From Alphaproteobacteria bacterium (lineage in GTDB: Bacteria; Pseudomonadota; Alphaproteobacteria; JABAAW01): a stretch of DNA of 64,000 nt. The stretch spans positions 1,347,594 through 1,411,593 of the forward strand of contig OZ244186.1 of NCBI GenBank assembly GCA_965216625.1. Direction: 5' to 3'. Shown here one piece after another: positions 2,177-50,235 of this stretch. The translations under genes and the position numbers were made by a program. Within the stretch, counting starts at the first letter, position 1. Each line of letters opens with the position of its first letter. Below the pieces are notes generated by a model. The model ran no database searches. It was given only the letters and a program-made list of their open reading frames with translations, and was not told the DNA's origin.

Positions 2177-3613
2177 ATGAGCGACATCAAGAACGACACG
2201 AACGACAGCAGCGACAGCACGGACGAGACGACACGACAAGTCGATCCGCCGACCCTTCTGCCTGAAGACGCGCCGAAAGACTTGGCGAAAGTCGTGGCTA
2301 CGAAGGGGGAGCGGCTTGTGCTTGCGCGCGCCTATCGTCCGAGGCGATTCGAGGATTTGATCGGACAAGAGCAGGCACGCAGAATTGTCGAGAACGCTTT
2401 ACGCAGCGATCGGTTGCATCACGCGATTCTGCTGTCGGGACCGCGTGGCACGGGCAAGACGACGATGGCGCGCCTGATCGCGCGCGCGGTGAATTGCGTT
2501 GGCAGGGGGGGTGGGGTTGATCCTTGCGGGGTGTGTTCGGCTTGCGAGGCGATGGCGAGGGGGGAGGTGATCGATGTGGTCGAGATCGACGCTGCGTCGC
2601 ACACGGGGGTTGATGGGGTGCGTGAGATTGTCGATGGGGCGGGCTATCGTCCTGTGATGATGTCGTGTCGCGTTTATATTATTGACGAGGTTCACATGTT
2701 GTCGCGCGCTGCTTTCAACGCGTTGCTGAAGACTTTGGAGGAGCCTCCGCCGCACTTGCGGTTTTTGTTTGCGACGACGGAGGTTGAGAAGGTTCCTCTG
2801 ACTGTATTGTCGCGTTGTTTGCGGTTAGAGTTGAAGCGATTAGACAGCGAGACTTTGGCAAAGCACTATACTTTTGTGAGCGAGCAGGAGGGGTGGCAGA
2901 TCGAGCGTGAGGCGGCGTTGGCGATTGCGCGTGCGGCGGAGGGATCTGTGCGCGATGGGTTATCGTTGTTGGATTGCGCGATGGTAGAGAGCGAGGGGAA
3001 GAGCATTGTGTTGGAGCGGGTTCGAGAGATGTTGTTTCTTTCGGATGGGCATGCTTTGTATGATTTGTTGGGGTCGATTGTGGATGGAGATTTATCGGTA
3101 GCGTTGGGGCATTTGGATACTTTGATGTTGAAGGGTGCTCAGGCGGAGCGATTGTTGCGCGAGATGATGGAGCGGTTGCATCGTTTATCGAGGATGAAGG
3201 TTGCGGATGGTAGCAGGGGGGTTGCGAATGCGGAGACTGATTCGTCTGTGGATATGGATGCTTTGATATTGGAGCCTAGCGATCGGGAGCGTGGGGGGAA
3301 GTTAGCGGAGGGGTTATCTTTGGCGTCGTTGTCGAGGTTGTGGCAGATTGCTTTACGGGGTTATGAGGAGTTGCGATTGGCGCCGCATCCTCGCTCGGCG
3401 TTGGATATGGTTGTTGTGCGGTTGGTGGGGGCGGCGGGCATGCCTTTACCGCAGGAGATTTTGGCGAGGTTGGCGCGGGGAGAAGAAGGAGCGCGGGGAG
3501 CTAACGAAGAGAAAAAAGAAGAAGAAAAGAAGGAAGAAAAGCAGGGTGGTGGATATGAGGAAAAGTTGCGGGAGACTTTTCCGGGGGCGACCATTGAGGA
3601 GCGTTTTGAATAA
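2177..3613 (+). CDS. dnaX: DNA polymerase III subunit gamma/tau; short, roughly gamma-length form with a charged low-complexity tail
   Basis: Walker A GPRGTGKTT, then CGVCSACEAM and VYIIDEVHML. It is 478 aa and ends in EEKKEEEKKEEKQGGG. Confidence 0.9.
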   Translation: MSDIKNDTNDSSDSTDETTRQVDPPTLLPEDAPKDLAKVVATKGERLVLARAYRPRRFEDLIGQEQARRIVENALRSDRLHHAILLSGPRGTGKTTMARLIARAVNCVGRGGGVDPCGVCSACEAMARGEVIDVVEIDAASHTGVDGVREIVDGAGYRPVMMSCRVYIIDEVHMLSRAAFNALLKTLEEPPPHLRFLFATTEVEKVPLTVLSRCLRLELKRLDSETLAKHYTFVSEQEGWQIEREAALAIARAAEGSVRDGLSLLDCAMVESEGKSIVLERVREMLFLSDGHALYDLLGSIVDGDLSVALGHLDTLMLKGAQAERLLREMMERLHRLSRMKVADGSRGVANAETDSSVDMDALILEPSDRERGGKLAEGLSLASLSRLWQIALRGYEELRLAPHPRSALDMVVVRLVGAAGMPLPQEILARLARGEEGARGANEEKKEEEKKEEKQGGGYEEKLRETFPGATIEERFE

Positions 3614-3765
3614 GAGGCTACGCATATCGCGCTACGCGCGAAATGCGTAGAAGGCGCTTACGCGCCCCGCTGACGCGGGGTCTTTTGCGGGGGGACTGCG
3701 TCCCCCCACACCCCCCATGCGCAAAACTCGCTGCGCCTACGGCTCGCTCGTCTTGCGTTTCCATC
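3614..3765. repeat. Mosaic palindromic intergenic repeat, copy 1 (REP/RIME-like)
   Basis: It contains three modules that recur elsewhere: ctacgcat...atgcgtag, ccccgctgacgcgggg and ggggggactgcgtcccccc/catgcgcaaaac. Copies lie at about 21620, 30510-31000, 31940-32500, 46575-47100 and 49655-50235. Confidence 0.8.
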
Positions 3766-3859
3766 GATACTCAAGTCCCGTTTTTGTAGCAAGGGGCAGT
3801 CCCGTACCCCCCTGCTTCCCTAAATTCACACAAAACAACCCGCAAATCAACCTCTTTAT

Positions 3860-7433: not shown

Positions 7434-9011
7434 ATGGCACAAGAAACGGCAGAAGTTTCTACGGATGTTTCTTCGGAGCGTCGTCGTGGTGGCGGTCGAG
7501 AGGGTCGTCGTGCGCTCCGTGCGCAAGCGGCGGTTGATCGGCGTGACACGGCTGCGGCGTATATCAAGCGTGGCATGCCTGTCTACAACTACTTCAGCGA
7601 GGAGCAGATCGACCGCATTTGCGACAACGGCGCGAAGATTCTGAAGGACATCGGCTTGGAGTTTCGTGAGGATGAGGAATCGCTCGCCTTGTGGAGGCAA
7701 GCGGGAGCTAAGGTGGAGGGTGAGCGCGTTCGCTGCGACGAATCCACGCTGTTGGATATCGTCAAGAGCGTGCCTTCTCAGTTCACGCTGCATGCGCGCA
7801 ATCCGAAACGCTCGGTACAGATCGGCGGAGATGCGATGGTGTTTTTGCCTACTTATGGACCTCCGTTTGTGCGCTCGCTGAAGGAGGGACGACGCTATGC
7901 GACGATCGAGGACTTTCGCAATTTTTCAAAGTTGACCTACTTATCGCCGGCGCTGCACCACAACGGCGGCACGCTGTGCGAGCCTACCGATCTTCCCGTC
8001 AACAAGCGGCACTTGGAGATGCTCTACAGCCACGTGCGCTATTCGGACAAGGGCTTTCTCGGCTCTGTGACGGCGCCTGAGCGAGCGCAAGATTCCGTCG
8101 ACTTTGCCAAAATCATCTTCGGCGAAGAGTTCACCGACAACAACGCTGTTATCAGCGCGATCATCAATGTCAACTCGCCGCTCGTCTTCGACAACACGAT
8201 GACGGGCGCACTGAAGGTCTATGCGCGCGCGAACCAGCCTTGCATCGTCTCGCCTTTCATCTTGTCGGGAGCCATGGGACCCGTCACCGTGGCAGGCACG
8301 CTTTCGCAAATCTACGCCGAGAGTCTGCTGGGCGCAGCTCTCGTACAGCTCTACCGCAAGGGAGCGCCGCACATCATGGGAACATTTGCGACCTCGCTCT
8401 CGATGCTCTCAGGCGCGCCTTGCTTTGGGACTGCCGAATCCAGCATGGTGCAGCTCGGCTGTGGGCAGATTGCGCGCAGGTTGGGCTTTCCGTTGCGCTC
8501 TAGCGGTGCTTTGTGTGGCTCTAAAATCATGGACGCGCAGGCAGCTTACGAATCGGCGATCTCTATGCAAACGAATCTGTTTGCGGGCAACAATGTCGTC
8601 ATGCACACGGCGGGATGGCTGGAGGGAGGCTTAGTGATGGACTACGAAAAATTCGTGTTAGACGCAGACCAAGCCATGGCTTTCGTCAGGTTGGCTACTC
8701 CTCCTGATACGGACGAGAACCAACTGGCTTTCGATGCGTTGCAAGAGGTCGGACCTGGCGGACACTACTTGGGCTGCGCGCACACGCAAGCCAACTTCGA
8801 GAGCGCCTTCCACAACTCGCCCTTCGTTGACAACGAGTCCTTCGAGCGATGGAAAGCCGAGGGAGAAAAGGACATGGTTGCGCGCGCTGCGGACAAGGTC
8901 GAGCGTATGTTGAACGAGTACGAGGCGCCGCCGATCGACGAGGCACTCGATGAAAACCTGCTCGAATTCATCAAGCGGCGTAAGGAGTCTATGCCTGATT
9001 CATGGATTTAG
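7434..9011 (+). CDS. MttB-family (trimethylamine/glycine betaine) methyltransferase, non-pyrrolysine type
   Basis: 525 aa with MttB superfamily features (COG5598), including GLEFREDEE. An RBS ggagg sits upstream of the ATG at 7434. Confidence 0.8.
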   Translation: MAQETAEVSTDVSSERRRGGGREGRRALRAQAAVDRRDTAAAYIKRGMPVYNYFSEEQIDRICDNGAKILKDIGLEFREDEESLALWRQAGAKVEGERVRCDESTLLDIVKSVPSQFTLHARNPKRSVQIGGDAMVFLPTYGPPFVRSLKEGRRYATIEDFRNFSKLTYLSPALHHNGGTLCEPTDLPVNKRHLEMLYSHVRYSDKGFLGSVTAPERAQDSVDFAKIIFGEEFTDNNAVISAIINVNSPLVFDNTMTGALKVYARANQPCIVSPFILSGAMGPVTVAGTLSQIYAESLLGAALVQLYRKGAPHIMGTFATSLSMLSGAPCFGTAESSMVQLGCGQIARRLGFPLRSSGALCGSKIMDAQAAYESAISMQTNLFAGNNVVMHTAGWLEGGLVMDYEKFVLDADQAMAFVRLATPPDTDENQLAFDALQEVGPGGHYLGCAHTQANFESAFHNSPFVDNESFERWKAEGEKDMVARAADKVERMLNEYEAPPIDEALDENLLEFIKRRKESMPDSWI

Positions 9012-21617: not shown

Positions 21618-21775
21618 GTCGCTACAGGTAGCCTAGCCGATGGCGGGCGAAAGGTCAATTTACGAAACGCGCGTAGAAGGCGCTATCGCGCCCCGCTGAC
21701 GCGGGGTCTTCGTGGGGGGAATTTATCCCCCCACACCCCCCCGCGTGCTACGCACGCGATGTTTTGCGCCCGTAA
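21618..21775. repeat. Mosaic palindromic intergenic repeat, copy 2
   Basis: It shares gcgcgtagaaggcgctatcgcgccccgctgacgcggggtctt...ggggggaatttatcccccc with the other copies. Confidence 0.8.
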
Positions 21776-21795
21776 AGACTACCCACTCCCATCAT

Positions 21796-30476: not shown

Positions 30477-30509
30477 TGGCGACGCGCTATGGCGAGGCAG
30501 ACACGGGCT

Positions 30510-31000
30510 TTGTTGATTAGGTAACATACGCAAGACGAGCGAGCCTTAAGATTAGTTTTGGGCGAAGCGAGTTTTGCGCATGGGGGGGGGGGCGACGGGC
30601 TTTTTGTATTGACGGGCGGAAAACATCGCGTGCGTAGCACGCGGGGGGGTGTGGGGGGATAAATTCCCCCCACGAAGACCCCGCGTCAGCGGGGCGCGAT
30701 AGCGCCTTCTACGCACTCGCGCGAAGCGCGAGATGCGTAGCCTCTTATTCAAAAGCACGTTGCTTGCCTCGCGCAAGGGGAATTTATCCCCAAGCTGACT
30801 CGCAATGCGGTAGAGCGTTTTTAATTTTGCCTAGAATCTAGAGATAAAAAGAATCGCGCGGAGCGCGCCTCTTATTCAAAAGCGCGTTGCTTGCAACGCG
30901 CAAGGGGAATTTATCCCCAAGCTGACTCGTAACACGGTAGAGCGTCTTTAATTTTGCCTAGAATCTAGAGATAAAAAGAATCGCGCGGAGCGCGAAAAAA
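30510..31000. repeat. Array of mosaic palindromic repeats, including two tandem ~125-bp units (30733..30857 and 30858..30982)
   Basis: Directly visible. The units are cctcttattcaaaagcgcg...gcgcaaggggaatttatccccaagctgactcg(t/c)aa(c/t)(a/g)cggtagagcgt...ttgcctagaatctagagataaaaagaatcgcgcggagcgcg. Confidence 0.85.
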
Positions 31001-31939: not shown

Positions 31940-32500
31940 AAAAGCAGCTTGCCGTGTTACGAGTCAGCTTGGGGATAAATTCCCCTTGCGCGTTTCTGCG
32001 AAACGCGCTTTTGAATAAGAGGCGCACTTCGTGCGTTCTTTTTTCCTCTATCTTCTAGGCAAAATTAAAAACTCTCTACCGTGTTACGAGTCAGCTTGCG
32101 CACGCCTTCGGCGTGCGCTTTTGAATACGAGGCGCGCTACGCGCGATTCTTTTTATCTCTAGGACGAGGAAAACAATCTCGCCGTACCATGTTACGAGTC
32201 AGCTCGGGGATAAATTCCCCTTGCGCACGGCAAGCCGTGCGCTTTTGAATAAGAGGCTACGCATCTCGCGCTTCGCGCGAAATGCGTAGAAAAGCGCACT
32301 GCGTGCGCGAGGGGATAAATTCCCCCCGCTGACGCGGGGTCTTTTGCGAGGGATTACTCCCTCGCGCTCCCCGCGTGCTACGCACGCGATGTTTTGCATC
32401 CGTCAATATAAAAAGCGCGTCAAGACAAAAAGCCCGTCAAGACAAAAAGCCCGTCAAGACAAAAAGTCCGTTACGCATCCGTAGTTCTGCTACAATCCCC
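31940..32500. repeat. Array of the same mosaic repeats in the inverted orientation relative to 30510..31000, followed by three tandem 17-nt units gtcaagacaaaaagccc (32417..32467)
   Basis: The units cgctctaccgtgttacgagtcagcttggggataaattcccc..., gcttttgaataagagg and ccccgctgacgcgggg are reverse complements of those in the left array. Confidence 0.85.
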
Positions 32501-36633: not shown

Positions 36634-36755
36634 GGGACGGCAACGCCCTACTCTTCCACGCCACGAGGACGCAGTACCATCGGCGCAGGAGGCTTTCACG
36701 TTCGAGTTCGGAAAGGGATCGGGTGTTGAGCCCTCCGCTATGATCGCCGCCCCGT
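36634..36755 (-). rRNA. rrf: 5S rRNA
   Basis: Reverse complement ...GGCGGCGATCATAGCGGAGGGCTCAACACCCGATCCCTTTCCGAACTCGAACGTGAAAGCCTCCTGCGCCGATGGTACTGCGTCCTCGTGGCGTGGAAGAGTAGGGCGTTGCCGTCCC. Confidence 0.85.
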
Positions 36756-37018
36756 CACTGCACGGAAACAAATCATGGATTTTTTTCGACAAGTTTGTTT
36801 GTCGTTTTTGTTTTGAGAACGCTTTTCAATTTTTAGTAATTTCTGTCACAGCATTATCTATGCGCTGAGGCGCTGCTTGCGTTTTGTCGAAGCAAAGAGC
36901 GTTAAGGTCAATCGAGAGATTAGTACCGGTCGGCTCCACATGTTACCATGCTTCCACCTCCGGCCTATCGACGTGGTGTTCTTCCACGGCTCTGATAGCG
37001 ATATCTATTTTCGAGGTT

Positions 37019-37051
<33 letters not shown>

Positions 37052-37219
37052 AGACCGTACTTGGCTACCCGGCACTGCCACTGGCGTGACAACCGGTACA
37101 CTATAGGTACGTCCACTCCGGTCCTCTCGTACTAGGAGCAGCTACTCTCAGATATCGAACACCCACGGCAGATAGGGACCGAACTGTCTCACGACGTTCT
37201 AAACCCAACTCACGTACCA

Positions 37220-37270
<51 letters not shown>

Positions 37271-37326
37271 TGATGAGTCGACATCGAGGTGCCAAACACC
37301 CCCGTCGATGTGAACTCTTGGGGGGT

Positions 37327-37380
<54 letters not shown>

Positions 37381-37808
37381 TCGGGACCACCGGATCACTA
37401 TGACCGACTTTCGTCTCTGTTCGGCCCGTCGGCCTTACAGTCAGGCAGGCTTGTGCCATTGCGCTCATCGGCTGATTTCCGACCAGCCTGAGCCTACCAT
37501 TGCGCGCCTCCGTTACTCTTTGGGAGGCGACCGCCCCAGTCAAACTACCCACCACGCAGGGTTCCGGCTCCTCCACGGAGTCGGTTAGATGACAAATACA
37601 GCAAGGGTGGTATCTCAAGGTTGCCTCCACCTCGACTAGCGTCGAGGTTTCTCAGGCTCCCACCTATCCTGCACGTGATGCATCTGGCATCACTGCGAAG
37701 TTGTAGTAAAGGTGCACGGGGTCTTTCCGTCTAACCGTGGGAACTCCGCATTTTCACGGAGAGTTCAATTTCGCTGAGTCTGTGTTGGAGACAGTGGGGA
37801 GATCGTTG

Positions 37809-37897
<89 letters not shown>

Positions 37898-37974
37898 TTC
37901 AGGAGCTTTCACCCCATCCCTTAACCTTCCGGCACCGGGCAGGCGTCAGACCCTATACTTCGTCTTACGACTTT

Positions 37975-38007
<33 letters not shown>

Positions 38008-38493
38008 CCCCTGATTTCGTGCCCCCCGCGACGGCTTGCGCCGCTGCGGGGCCTCCTTTTCCCGAAGTTACGGAGGTAATTTGCCGAGTTCCTTCAACAC
38101 AGTTTTCTCACGCGCCTTGGTATGCTCAACCGATCCACCAGTGTCGGTTTAGGGTACGGTCTAAAGCTGGGGTTCTTTCCAGGAACGACTTCCCCTGCCT
38201 TCGCAATCCGATCAGCGAAGACAAGAAAGGTCATCCGTCACCTCCAGCAGGCTCAGGAATATTAACCTGATTCCCATCGTCTACGGCTTTCGCCCTCGAC
38301 TTAGGGGCCGGCTCACCCTACGCGGACGAGCCTTGCGTAGGAAACCTTGGATTCTCGGCGGGGGTGATTCTCACACCCCTTGACGCTACTCATGTCAGCA
38401 TTCTCACTTCCGATACCTCCACGACACCTTACGACGCCGCTTCACAGGCTTACGGAACGCTCCGCTACCGATGCAACAGAATCTGTCCGTCGT

Positions 38494-38998
38494 CAATTAA
38501 TCATCATTTAAATTGCGCTCCTATCCCTTCTATAAGCCAACTAGGGATGGAGTCAGAATCTCCATCCCCGTTAGCAATGTCAAATCGTTTTGACTAGTTC
38601 GCTCTTTTGCAAGCCCCATCCTCACAAGAATAAATTTGGGGAGACAAAGGGATGCCGAAAACATGACGAGGAATCGCCAGATAACCTGCTGGCGCATCAA
38701 TTGTGTCGGTACTGCCTCCAAAATAGATCCCGCCAGTGGTACATCCACCCAAGGCAAATATTCCCACAAGAGCCACAGCTACGATAAGAGATTTTTTCAT
38801 GTCATCCTCCTACAAGGATTGTTGAGAAACTGCCTCTCGCGCTCGTGCGCGGAGGCACTGCCTTATCGGCAGGTGGAGCGATGATAGTATGAAAAAAGGC
38901 TTTGACAACCTTTTTTGCTTTTCACCATCTCCTCCTCGTGTTTCTTTTTTCCCTTGAAGGAGGGACATGAAATTGACGACGCACAGATTCTGTTACAT
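38494..38998 (-). other. ~505-nt intervening sequence replacing 23S helix 45; long (~28 bp) closing inverted repeat
   Basis: The rRNA sense reads GAAGCTGCGGG|ATGTAACAGAATCTGTGCGTCGTCAATT...AATTGACGACGGACAGATTCTGTTGCAT|CGGTAGCGGAGCGTTCC. The flanks match E. coli positions about 1160-1190, where helix 45 IVSs are known. Confidence 0.75.
38594..38800 (-). CDS. Small lipoprotein (68 aa; ~48-aa mature peptide with a C-terminal Cys pair) encoded inside the 23S IVS, in the rRNA sense
   Basis: MKKSLIVAVALVGIFALGGC is a lipobox, followed by ...YSCEDGACKRAN. The RBS is aggagga. A conserved hairpin ccgcgcacgagcgcg lies upstream. It is A+T-richer than the flanking rRNA. Confidence 0.5.
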   Translation of the reverse strand: MKKSLIVAVALVGIFALGGCTTGGIYFGGSTDTIDAPAGYLAIPRHVFGIPLSPQIYSCEDGACKRAN

Positions 38999-39059
38999 CC
39001 CGCAGCTTCGGTATACGGCTTGAGCCCCGTTACATCTTCGACGCAGGAAGGCTTGATTA

Positions 39060-39123
<64 letters not shown>

Positions 39124-39680
39124 TGGCTTTCCCACATTCTTTCCCACTTAGCCGTAATTTAGGGACCTTAGCTGGCGGTCAGGGCTGTTTCCCTTTTGAC
39201 GACGGACCTTAGCACCCGCCGTCTGTCTGCCGTGCTGAATCCTACAGTATTCGGAGTTTGGTTAGGTTTGGTAAGGCTCGCGCCCCCCTAGCCCATCCAG
39301 TGCTCTACCCCTGCAGGAGATCACACGACGCACTACCTAAATAGTTTTCGCGGAGAACCAGCTATTTCCGAGTTTGATTGGCCTTTCACCCCTAGCCACA
39401 GATCATCCGAAGATTTTGCAACATCTAACGGTTCGGCCCTCCAATGCGTGTTACCGCATCTTCAGCCTGTCCATGGCTAGCTCACTCGGTTTCGGGTCTT
39501 ATACTACGAACTAACGCGCCCTTTTAAGACTCGCTTTCGCTACGCCTACGCCTCACGGCTTAAGCTTGCTCGTAACACAAAGTCGCTGACCCATTATGCA
39601 AAAGGTACGCGATCACCGCACGAAGCGGCTCTCGCAGGTTGTAGGCACTCGGTTTCAGGGACTCTTTCACTCCCCGCATT

Positions 39681-39726
<46 letters not shown>

Positions 39727-40613
39727 GTCGAGGAGTATTTAGGCTTGGAGGGTGGTCCCCCCACATTCAGGCAAGATGTCACGTGTCCCGCCCTACTCTA
39801 GAACAAATCATGCAGATTCGTGTACGGGGCTATCACCCTCTATGGCGCGTCGTTCCAGACGTCTTCCTCTTCAAGCATAATCAGCTACTGGCCTCTTCCG
39901 CGTTCGCTCGCCGCTACTAACGGAATCTCGGTTGATGTCTCTTCCTCCGGCTAATGAGATGTTTCAGTTCGCCGGGTTCGCTTCGCTGTACTTGCGTACA
40001 ACGATTCCCCACTAAGGGGAGGGTTTTCCCATTCGGATATTTTCGGATCACAGTGTGCTGGCAACTCCCCGAAACTTTTCGCAGCCTGCCACGTCCTTCA
40101 TCGCCTCTCGACGCCAAGGCATTCGCCAAGCGCCCTTTGCTACCTTTCGCTCTTTGCTGACAATTCGCAAGCAGCGCCTCAACTCATAGAGGGCTGCTGT
40201 TGACAGAAATTGTGCGTTCTTTCCGATTTCACAAAACTCCGTGCGCAACGCGCCGACAGAGCCAGAAAATCGAATTCTTACAAACGATGGACTTGTTCAA
40301 TAGTTCCCCCCGAAACGCCTCTCGTATTGCAAATACAAGCAGCGCGAAGCCCATAATAGCCGAGCCAGTACTAGAGCGCAAGAAAAAAAACACAAAAAAC
40401 GCATCAGAGATAAAAAAACACGCAAGCGAAAATTTTCCCATCCTCCCCTCTTTTGCTCCCTCTTTTTCTCTTTGTGCGCCTTGCCTCAAAGCACGCCTTG
40501 CGTAGAAAACGACGCTCTCATGTCAGCATTCTCACTTCCGATAACGCTTCTCATTCTTGCGGAACGCTCCGCTAGCGATGCAACAGAATCTGTCCGTCGT
40601 CAATTTTTTTCTT

Positions 40614-41030
40614 TTATTTAAATGGTGCTTCTACAGCACCAGGTTTCAACCTCCAGCCAGTGATAGGACTGCGTTTCCCTATCACTTTTTGCGTATAAAC
40701 TTCTCCCGTCTCAGGATGCGTAATCTCAACACGATATCTAGCACGCTTGAGATATCCCACCTTGCGCTGAAGAGGTATCGTATCGGGCGTGAGACCGCTT
40801 GCCAGCGTTTTTCCAGATGTCTCTGAAATCACAACATATTTTGCTCTCAACTCCCCAGCTCTTATGGAGATCGACTGAGGCTCATGCCCACTCGCCATCA
40901 GCGCACACCCACCAACAAACAACAGCGGGCAAACGCCAACAGCAATAAATATTAACAGCTCTCTCTTCACAACACCCTCCCGCCTAGCGTCTGGATTGGT
41001 ATGGTAGGGAGTGGGAGGCATAATGCCCAA
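40614..41030 (-). CDS. Putative lipoprotein (mature part ~100 aa); start probably the internal GTG/ATG preceding LLIFIAVGVCPLLFVGGC
   Basis: Lipobox LFVGGC, then HEPQSISIRAGELRAKYVVISETSGK.... No family assignment was possible. Confidence 0.35.
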   Translation of the reverse strand: MGIMPPTPYHTNPDARREGVVKRELLIFIAVGVCPLLFVGGCALMASGHEPQSISIRAGELRAKYVVISETSGKTLASGLTPDTIPLQRKVGYLKRARYRVEITHPETGEVYTQKVIGKRSPITGWRLKPGAVEAPFK

Positions 41031-41057
41031 TACCCCACTCCCTATCCATTTAAGTCG

Positions 41058-41258
41058 TTAATTGACAGAAGGACATACAGTTCCGCTAGAACAATCGTAG
41101 ACCTTAGGTTTCAAAGGAATCGGAATCGTAAAGATCCATAACGTCCGAGCGGCCGCAACTTTGTCATCTTTCAAAGTTGTTAATCCCATGTTTGTCACGC
41201 ACCCCCCAAGTGTAACAACAGCAACAAGAGCCACAGCTGCAATAAGAGATTTTTTCAT
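41058..41258 (-). CDS. Small lipoprotein paralogous to the IVS-encoded one (66 aa from MKKSLIAAV...; C-terminal Cys pair)
   Basis: MKKSLIAAVALVAVVTLGGC...YDCSSGTVCPSVN. Its upstream region is homologous to that of 38594..38800. The track start at 41273 includes the RBS. Confidence 0.45.
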   Translation of the reverse strand: MKKSLIAAVALVAVVTLGGCVTNMGLTTLKDDKVAAARTLWIFTIPIPLKPKVYDCSSGTVCPSVN

Positions 41259-41510
41259 GTCATCCTCCTTCAAGGATTGTTAAAAAACTGCCTCTCGCGC
41301 TCGTGCGCGGAAGCACCGCCTTTAAGCACTCCATAAGAGGCACACTTATCGGCAGGTGGCGCAATAATAGCATTAAAAAAAGTTTTATCAACCTTTTTTT
41401 GCTTTTTTTTCCGCGTCTTCTTTTTCCTTATTTGTGCGCGCGTTGGAGTTGGGAACAGACAACTCGACGTGCGCCTTGCCTCAAAGCACGCCTTGCGCCA
41501 TAGTGGAGGG

Positions 41511-46574: not shown

Positions 46575-47100
46575 CTGTTGCGCTCGCGTAACACAGACGG
46601 GCTTTTTGTATTGACGGGTAAACGCAAGACGAGCGAGCCGTAGGCGAAGTGAGTTTTGCGCATGGGGGGTGTGGGGGGACGAAGTCCCCCCGCAAAAAGC
46701 GCGCCGCGAGCGGGCGCGTAAGCGCCTTCTACGCAGTTCGCGCGTAGCGCGAGATGCGTAGCCTCTTATTCAAAAGCGCGTTTCGCAGAAACGCGCAAGC
46801 TGACTCGCGTCACAAAATCTGCTTGCCGTGTCACGAGTCAGCTTGCGCGAGGCAAAGCCTCGCGCTTTGGTACAAGAGGCTACGCACTTCGCTTCGCTCG
46901 TGCGTAGATAAAGCGCGCTTACGCGCGCTCCGCTGACGCGGGGTCTTTTGCGGGGGGACTGCGTCCCCCCCCTCCCCCCATGCGCAAAACTCACTTCGCC
47001 TTACGGCTCGCTCGTCTTGCGTATGTTACCTAATCAATAAGGGGAATTTATCCCCTCGCCCGCTCCTCATAAAGCGCAAGCCCCCCGCGCCCACACGCCA
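46575..47100. repeat. Array of mosaic palindromic repeats (copy 5)
   Basis: It contains gcaagacgagcgagccgtaggcg...gttttgcgcatggggggtgtgggggg, the ctacgcat/atgcgtag module, aagctgactcg, ccgctgacgcgggg and ggggaatttatcccc. Confidence 0.85.
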
Positions 47101-49654: not shown

Positions 49655-50235
49655 CATTTTCTTCTGCTGGTGTCTCTGCATTTACGGAGCAAGAATAGTG
49701 CCAACTTCGCGTGCAGAAACGCGCTTTTTATGTTGACGGACGCAAAACATTGCGTGCGCTTGCGTGTGTTGACGGCAAAACGCAAGACGAGCGAGCCGTA
49801 GGCGCAGCGAGTTTTGCGCATGGGGGGAGGGGGGGGACGCAGTCCCCCCGCAAAAGACCCCGCGTCAGCGGAGCGCGCGTAAGCGCGCTTTATCTACGCG
49901 CGTAGCGCGTAGCCTCTTATTCAAAAGCGCGTTTCGCAGAAACGCGCAAGCTGACTCGTAACATGGTACGGCGATTCTGTTTTGTCTCTATCTTCTAGGC
50001 AAAATTAAAGACGCTCTACCGCGTTGCGAGTCAGCTTGCGCGAGGCAAGCCTCGCGCTTTTGAATAAGAGGCTGTGCGTTTCGCTTCGCTCACGCACAGA
50101 AAAGCGCACTGCGTGCGCTCCGCTGACGCGGGGTCTTTTGCGAGGGATTACTCCCTCGCGCTCCCCGCGTGCTACGCACGCGATGTTTTGCATCCGTCAT
50201 CATACAAAGCCCGTCTGTTGTGCAAGCGCGTACCT
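49655..50235. repeat. Array of mosaic palindromic repeats (copy 6)
   Basis: Same modules as copy 5, in partly rearranged order. Confidence 0.85.

Follow-up and report, generated by a model that had tools for sequence, protein, structure and literature searches.

We have analysed a window of 64,000 nucleotides (nt), i.e. the whole stretch of DNA at positions 1,347,594 to 1,411,593 of contig OZ244186.1 from an alphaproteobacterium, and find that its 23S ribosomal RNA (rRNA) gene is interrupted at helix 45 by an intervening sequence (IVS) which, in our judgement, is likely to house a self-contained expression cassette for a small lipoprotein. The open reading frame (ORF) at the heart of this insert, here called gene A, is probably a working gene living within an rRNA gene and not junk, because the arrangement recurs in relatives and because the gene differs sharply between near-identical strains. 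The element as such, an rRNA IVS, is of an already known kind; what is new is a cargo that is unrelated to the S23p family and is promoted autonomously. A preliminary description of this DNA had recognised the interrupted 23S gene and its ORF, and to this are added here a cargo belonging to a two-gene family, a relic copy upstream of the 23S gene, and hypervariability between strains. Unless marked otherwise, all features described below lie on the minus strand, i.e. in the rRNA sense.

The 23S rRNA gene (36898-40149; Rfam RF02541, 2650.7 bits, model positions 1-2925) is full length and interrupted only at helix 45. Local alignment to the Rfam model places one large insertion in a hairpin loop at model position ~1218, and BLAST against E. 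coli 23S, counted from its annotated start, equates window position 39000 with E. coli nt 1162, so that the insert replaces helix 45 (E. coli nt ~1164-1185). As delimited by alignment, E. coli mapping and folding, the IVS spans 38470-38999 with both arms, i.e. 530 nt, making the gene about 505 nt longer than with a normal helix 45, and it has a G+C content of 0.46 against 0.55 for the window. The 5' arm of the closing stem (GAUGUAACAGAAUCUGUGCGUCGUCAAUU, 38971-38999) pairs with the 3' arm (AAUUGACGACGGACAGAUUCUGUUGCAUC, 38470-38498) in a 29-bp helix that contains a single G.G mismatch and a single G.U pair, and the stem region (541 nt) folds at -229 kcal/mol, compared with -158.5 +/- 6.8 kcal/mol for shuffled sequences (z = -10.4). 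Position and closing repeat, the latter put at ~28 bp in the preliminary description, thus stand. The span given there, 38494-38998, includes the 5' arm but reaches just 5 nt into the 3' arm, and has been widened to the true element. That description had further counted a disrupted 23S pseudogene as evidence against an IVS and an empty helix 45 in related genomes as evidence for one; the remaining 23S sequence is intact, with 98-99% identity to the relative L001, and L001 itself has a nearly empty insert.

The comparison draws on several further sequences. The one locus returned by the contig scan, L001, belongs to a metagenome-assembled genome with Alphaproteobacteria in its title; it is in synteny with the window and matches its flanks at about 90% identity. 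L002 and L003 are two independent assemblies of a near-identical strain, L002 being ~98% identical to the window; and L006 is a 1059-nt contig from another metagenome, more distant from the window. The closing stem is kept in all five sequences, whereas the length between the same 23S landmarks varies from 530 nt in the window to 512 in L002, 513 in L003, 950 in L006 and 129 in L001. In L001 the insert (~108 nt) has the same stem and no ORF. L002 and L003 hold within their 23S genes an IVS of ~487 nt with an ortholog of A (P0003, 62 amino acids (aa)) and the same promoter, leader and trailing hairpins as in the window. The IVS of L006 (~925 nt) is contiguous, reading 23S-arm-promoter-leader-A-B-arm-23S, and thus holds two lipoprotein genes, A and a second one, B. 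A-B pairs are also carried by L004 and L005, the latter ending in the 3' arm and 23S sequence, and B-like genes follow A-like genes in L002, L004, L005 and L006. Position, a stem of complementary arms, intact remaining rRNA, and sporadic occurrence at variable size among relatives together mark the insert as a helix-45 IVS. Two scans of JGI metagenomes, one with the 3' arm and one with a leader and ribosome-binding-site pattern, gave no matches, the arm pattern being too strict for arms of the L005 and L006 type; a scan of IMG/VR likewise gave none.

Within the stem lies a complete gene unit. Gene A (38594-38800), identified from the ORF list and supported by orthologs, a HMMER family and substitution ratios, encodes a 68-aa lipoprotein-type precursor. 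It is preceded by a sigma-70-like promoter (TTGTCA-16 nt-TATCAT, 38881-38908), also in the rRNA sense, which matches 10 of 12 positions in the promoter scan, as does its counterpart in the cassette upstream of the 23S gene, and occurs at the homologous place in 7/7 cassette copies from at least four assemblies, with TTG..A, TA...T and the 16-nt spacer invariant. Between promoter and gene, a structured 5' leader (38804-38872) forms three hairpins: H1 (38858-38872), H2 (GCCUCCGCGC-loop-GCGCGAGAGGC, 38831-38857) and H3 (38804-38819). The ribosome-binding site, AGGAGGA at 38805-38811, is conserved in all copies and lies 4 nt (GAUG-AC spacing region) upstream of the ATG; it is occluded by H3, in which AUCCUU pairs with GAGGAU of the site. 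Single leader sequences fold with z between -3.2 and -5.5, and the consensus fold of seven copies contains 33 pairs, eight of them with compensatory double changes, one of which (UA-to-CG) falls in H3 over the ribosome-binding site. This placement of H3 suggests regulated translation. The preliminary description had reported an ORF in rRNA sense with a strong ribosome-binding site, a hairpin and the quoted 68-aa sequence, and had offered a promoter of its own as one route of expression; the structural features are borne out, and the promoter is supported by the pattern TTGnnA-16-TAnnnT in every cassette copy.

Past the stop codon follow two hairpins (38579-38594 and 38544-38569) that have no U-tract, are 96-100% conserved in L002, and were not called as terminators in the terminator scan. 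Directly before the 3' arm, the last ~18 nt (38504-38521, GGAGCGCAATTTAAATGA) align with the 3' end of B (..EAPFK stop), both in the cassette upstream of the 23S gene described below and in the two-gene IVS of L006, so the IVS of the window once held A and B. Within the IVS, Rfam at permissive E-values gave nothing credible and no family for the leader or the hairpins. A second candidate, the 52-aa ORF at 38810-38968, is probably not a gene: a ribosome-binding site is missing, the ORF runs across the promoter and the leader hairpins, and its counterparts contain an internal frameshift in L002 and lack the start codon in L003.

Product A begins with a putative signal peptide, read by eye as MKK-SLIVAVALVGIFA-LGG-C20, with the lipobox ALGG|C20, and ends in IPLxPxIYxCxDGxC. 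In an alignment of five sequences the lipobox Cys and the Gly before it are invariant, the other Gly being E in one member; across eight A-like genes the Cys is again invariant, one further member reads FAGC, and 5/5 B-like proteins have a lipobox-type Cys. Models of lipoprotein signals match weakly (LPAM_1 at E = 0.11, for the upstream paralogue A' only; LptM at 0.058-0.11; YgdI/YgdR at 0.06, A' only), while neither Pfam nor NCBIfam holds a family for A, A' or B. From its sequence, A would be exported and lipidated at Cys20, leaving a predicted mature lipopeptide of 48 aa. The product has no Pfam match at E <= 1, S23p (PF05635) included, and the AlphaFold model is beta-rich and not helical, unlike the four-helix bundle of S23p. 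In the model, the last ~20 residues form a beta-hairpin that contains the two conserved cysteines (local confidence score (pLDDT) ~79); a disulfide between Cys59 and Cys64 probably closes it. Exact look-ups of six proteins encoded in the window, among them the IVS lipoprotein, the gene call of B, Rpe, a dCTP-deaminase-like ORF (so named by eye) and a 297-aa ORF, gave no database record. Queried singly, the proteins A and B returned the window's own proteins only; a profile HMMER search of 1.84 billion representatives gave three short lipoproteins of the same layout and an alignment search added one, the A/B family in the searched databases amounting to six small proteins only. B-like proteins of L004 (341-763) and L005 (437-868) contain an extra hydrophobic segment of ~26 residues (..GNLALLPLLIVGAPIAWFGVDPATGAMW..), absent from B of the window, L002 and L006.

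A paralogous cassette lies upstream of the 23S gene at 40474-41497, as found by blastn of the IVS against the window and by alignment. It comprises, in order, a promoter, a leader with ribosome-binding site, gene A', gene B, a copy of the 3' arm and a 23S fragment. The promoter (TTGATA-16-TATTAT, with TG before the -10 element, 41364-41391, promoter scan) is a better match than that of the IVS, while leader and ribosome-binding site are the same. A' (41058-41258, 66 aa, P0008) is 45% identical to A and has the same signal peptide and the same C-terminal Cys motif, IPLxPxxYxCxxGxxC; B (40614-40970, ORF list) encodes a lipoprotein-type product of 118 aa from a GTG start, or 135 aa in the database gene call. 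The arm copy (40577-40605), identical over 29 nt, and a degenerate 23S fragment (40511-40576) together (40511-40605, blastn) match 38382-38498 at 76%. Since the cassette ends in IVS arm and 23S sequence, the upstream copy derives from a cargo-bearing IVS and not the reverse, and we regard it as a relic of one. It is bracketed by perfect 29-bp direct repeats (CGCAAGGCGTGCTTTGAGGCAAGGCGCAC, 41469-41497 and 40474-40502), which are also present in L002 and, slightly diverged, in L001. The arrangement is common to the window, L001 and L002, with the terminal 3' arm and 23S fragment in 3/3; L002 has two A-like genes and B where the window has A' and B. The paralogous copy foreseen in the preliminary description therefore exists, and the ORF is conserved in it as well as in the orthologous insert of another strain. 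In the upstream cassette of L001 (5990-6860), comparison with L002 shows 3/3 lipoprotein genes to be broken by 1-nt indels, whereas rpe next to them is intact; either the long-read assembly is in error here or the genes are real pseudogenes, and this is the genome that lost the IVS cargo.

The simplest history starts from an ancestral IVS with both A and B. A partial copy of it would have arisen upstream of the 23S gene before the lineages of the window and of L001 separated; later, the window/L002 lineage would have lost B from its IVS, and L001 all of the cargo.

Several observations speak for coding function. All eight A-like and five B-like genes of the window, L002 and L004-L006 are intact, a count that leaves aside the frameshifted upstream genes of L001. 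Pairwise ratios of nonsynonymous to synonymous substitution (dN/dS) are below 1 wherever they can be estimated (A 0.13-0.71, B 0.16-0.39), other pairs being saturated at synonymous sites, and the conserved motifs are distinguished among copies by synonymous changes. The lipoprotein frame is the only one open in all three IVS copies (window, L002 and L003), and indels between alleles are in frame.

The alleles differ far more than their surroundings. In 100-nt steps over 7 kilobases (kb), identity between the window and L002 stays at 96-100% everywhere except in two places: it falls to 8-59% where the upstream cassette is coding and to 55-82% in the IVS ORF. Synonymous divergence of the IVS ORF amounts to 0.25-1.0 depending on the segment, far in excess of what the flanks would allow, which points to alleles imported by recombination and not to point mutation. 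Judged by its sequence, the L002 allele is a mosaic of the IVS type and the upstream type: in codons 6-20, 41/45 nt match the upstream paralogue of the window and 30/45 its IVS allele, whereas from codon 41 to the end 78/96 nt match the IVS allele and 45/96 the upstream paralogue. Such a pattern, seen here in two strains only, is like that of exposed envelope proteins under diversifying selection and so argues that the protein is made. An earlier notion, that the non-coding parts are ultra-conserved against a background of ~10% divergence, was dropped, as the ~98% identity of L002 means that it is the coding sequences that are unusually divergent.

Taken together, we propose that the cassette would be expressed and diversified as follows. 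The pre-23S transcript would fold the closing stem, which RNase III presumably cuts without religation, because all characterised helix-45 IVSs behave in this way. Cutting would leave 23S fragments of about 1151 and 1596 nt and free an RNA of ~0.5 kb containing the entire leader and ORF. The internal promoter may provide a second route to the message, independent of the rRNA promoter, and translation would be gated by H3 over the ribosome-binding site. New alleles would arise through gene conversion between the IVS copy and the upstream copy, with the shared block of promoter, leader and signal peptide on one side and the shared block of 3' arm and 23S sequence on the other as homology anchors.

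A number of points weigh against a working lipoprotein cassette. No terminator follows the ORF, so a transcript from the internal promoter would enter the 3' half of the 23S gene, and it would be without the 5' arm. The coding signal of the window/L002 pair of IVS orthologs is weak when taken alone (dN/dS 0.51); a frame of this kind stays open after 50 random substitutions with P = 0.24, and the C-terminal 30 codons with P of about 0.1. The AlphaFold models of A and B are of low confidence (pLDDT 60 and 58), and genes for RNase III and for Lgt/LspA are not among the genes of the 64-kb window. Finally, the cargo has shrunk from A and B to A in the window lineage and is fully lost in L001, and in Coxiella no translation of the S23p ORF takes place in vivo and the IVS RNA, once excised, decays in a matter of minutes (PMC4990558), so an ORF in an IVS can be a decaying passenger.

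These last points lead to the alternative that fares best, in which the IVS is excised as usual, the ORF is an untranslated passenger in decay and the non-coding parts persist solely because rRNA folding and processing need them. The loss of cargo, the Coxiella precedent and the non-significant frame retention of the ortholog pair are all compatible with it; we nevertheless consider it unlikely. The ribosome-binding site is strong and conserved, where that of Coxiella is poor; promoter and H3 are conserved, H3 with a compensatory change; lipobox and all residues of the C-terminal motif are intact; and the allele indels respect the frame. Above all, the coding sequence diverges 10-50 times more than the flanks and is mosaic, for which imported alleles are needed and in-place decay does not suffice.

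A second alternative, which appears quite improbable, retains the insert in mature 23S rRNA as a 530-nt surface expansion segment, with the gene expressed from its own promoter only. RNase III-deficient Salmonella retains IVSs in functional 23S rRNA, as cited in PMC2743711 and PMC6191907. An internal promoter does exist and no rnc gene was seen in the window; however, the 29-bp near-perfect stem is a typical RNase III substrate and has been kept across lineages whose insert interiors differ by hundreds of nt. Leader and trailer of the 23S gene also form the stem that RNase III, an enzyme almost universal in bacteria, normally uses. Moreover, the characterised helix-45 IVSs are all excised (PMC4990558). 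There is, lastly, a very remote chance that a transposable element, miniature inverted-repeat element or intron has disrupted the 23S gene and left it a pseudogene, or that the insert is an assembly artefact: the 29-bp terminal inverted repeats do resemble those of transposable elements and a partial second copy lies nearby, but the insert has no transposase or homing endonuclease (no Pfam or NCBIfam match), no group I or II intron match in Rfam and no target-site duplication, helix 45 being replaced, its arms recur in the window only in the upstream relic, the 23S gene is otherwise full length and 98-100% conserved, and the same structure is found in four independent assemblies.

Returning to the cassette as a working unit, the variability between strains allows a further-reaching proposal, which we put forward tentatively and hold to be rather doubtful: that the IVS is an expression site for a fast-changing surface lipoprotein, combining an rRNA-borne message, release by RNase III, gating by a hairpin, and repeated replacement of the coding segment by conversion from the upstream relic, which would be kept because it supplies both homology anchors. 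The two copies do share such blocks of homology, only the coding sequences diverge and one allele is mosaic, in a comparison of two strains only; the upstream copy, with its better promoter match and its own ribosome-binding site, does not look like a silent donor. If the proposal is true, an rRNA processing stem would form the core of a variation system with two loci, in which the gene rides on the most heavily transcribed RNA of the cell and RNase III releases a ready-made message.

The neighbours of the cassette are ordinary housekeeping genes (LptF/G, PdxA, PdxJ, KsgA, FlaF, HisRS, RF-1, heme synthesis, a TRAP transporter and MttB), and by these genes the host is a Gram-negative (two-membrane), flagellated alphaproteobacterium. 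A 5S rRNA gene (36635-36751; Rfam RF00001, 76.1 bits) lies downstream of the 23S gene, while no 16S gene and no spacer tRNA turned up in the Rfam scan of all 64 kb, which suggests that the rRNA genes are unlinked. The 23S leader segment at 40148-40211 forms a processing stem with the trailer at 36838-36901 (inverted match of 66 nt, 83%), the complementarity of ~64 nt representing the usual RNase III processing stem. A possible rRNA promoter, TTGCGC-17 nt-TATTAT at 40353-40381, follows a long T-rich tract ~200 nt upstream of the mature 23S 5' end and is below the scan threshold (3/6 in the first hexamer). The MttB (trimethylamine methyltransferase) family member (7434-9011, plus strand, 525 aa, E = 2e-210) is uninterrupted, i.e. 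without an in-frame stop, and is therefore of the non-pyrrolysine type. Dispersed intergenic repeats occur at six places (3604-3787, 21671-21779, 30503-30994, 31952-32421, 46591-47040 and 49719-50215); they are about 70-400 nt long and 72-97% identical, with copies also in L002, and some are palindromic, 46622-47022 matching its own reverse complement. They look like a miniature inverted-repeat or repetitive extragenic palindrome (REP)-type element and have no link to the IVS arms.

rRNA IVSs are usually viewed as neutral or selfish spacers, and the few ORFs known from them decay or serve the element. The insert described here instead holds what looks like an ordinary gene unit for the cell envelope, with a promoter of its own and a probably regulated leader, retained in several lineages and changing fastest in its coding part. 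If the peptide is made, a bacterial rRNA gene hosts a selected protein-coding operon, and the use of an RNase III-excised spacer as mRNA becomes directly testable. Annotation would then deserve attention as well, since pipelines mask rRNA genes and thereby overlook genes of this sort.

Cassette-based variation of surface proteins is known from Neisseria pilE/pilS, Borrelia vlsE and Anaplasma msp2. As in these systems, the variable coding segment of the window lies between conserved blocks of homology, has a further copy close by and shows mosaic alleles between strains; the window differs in having two copies only and a site inside an rRNA gene, and its upstream copy is not a silent donor because it has a promoter of its own.

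Among IVSs proper, those at helix 45 of Salmonella, Leptospira and Coxiella are excised by RNase III and the ribosomes tolerate the break, according to the accounts in PMC4990558 and PMC2672173. The closest parallel is the IVS of Coxiella burnetii (428-444 nt; PMC4990558), which shares with that of the window the helix-45 position, a similar size, the closing stem and an ORF in rRNA sense, in a host that likewise has an apparently single-copy 23S gene and a small genome. Its cargo is different: an S23p four-helix-bundle protein whose ribosome-binding site is poor and for which no internal promoter has been reported; it is not produced in vivo and its gene is decaying. In contrast, the window has a lipoprotein-type precursor without S23p similarity, a strong ribosome-binding site, a conserved promoter, a structured leader, a paralogous copy outside the rRNA gene and hypervariable alleles. 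S23p-family ORFs are found in the IVSs of Coxiella, Leptospira and Brucella (PMC4990558). The Leptospira IVSs (485-759 nt; Ralph and McClelland 1993, via PMC4990558) are, as in the window, long, located at helix 45, ORF-bearing and sporadic, and they are excised by RNase III; the account given there assigns their ORFs to S23p and describes no lipoprotein cargo, two-gene operon or upstream relic. Our literature search combining IVS, 23S and lipoprotein likewise found no report of lipoprotein cargo.

Short helix-45 IVSs (about 80-150 nt, no ORF) in Salmonella, Yersinia, Campylobacter, Proteus and Rhodobacter share the site and the stem-loop logic and are resembled by the ~108-nt insert of L001; they are without cargo, whereas the stem in the window encloses a gene unit of ~470 nt. 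Alphaproteobacterial IVSs typically lie in helix 9, as in Rhizobiales, Brucella and Rhodobacter (PMC2743711, PMC6191907), bacteria of the same class as that of the window; they are rRNA inserts processed by RNase III, occupy a different helix and have no ORFs; by Rfam alignment, the 23S gene of the window has no helix-9 IVS. Protein-coding DNA within rRNA genes is, finally, known from insertion sequences and introns, with transposases as cargo in Nostoc and Deinococcus (PMC2672173) and homing endonucleases in bacteria of the candidate phyla radiation (CPR; PMC11270868). Those cargoes serve the mobility of the element that carries them, whereas the cargo described here is a predicted exported lipoprotein with no mobility function, held at one fixed site in the 23S rRNA gene.

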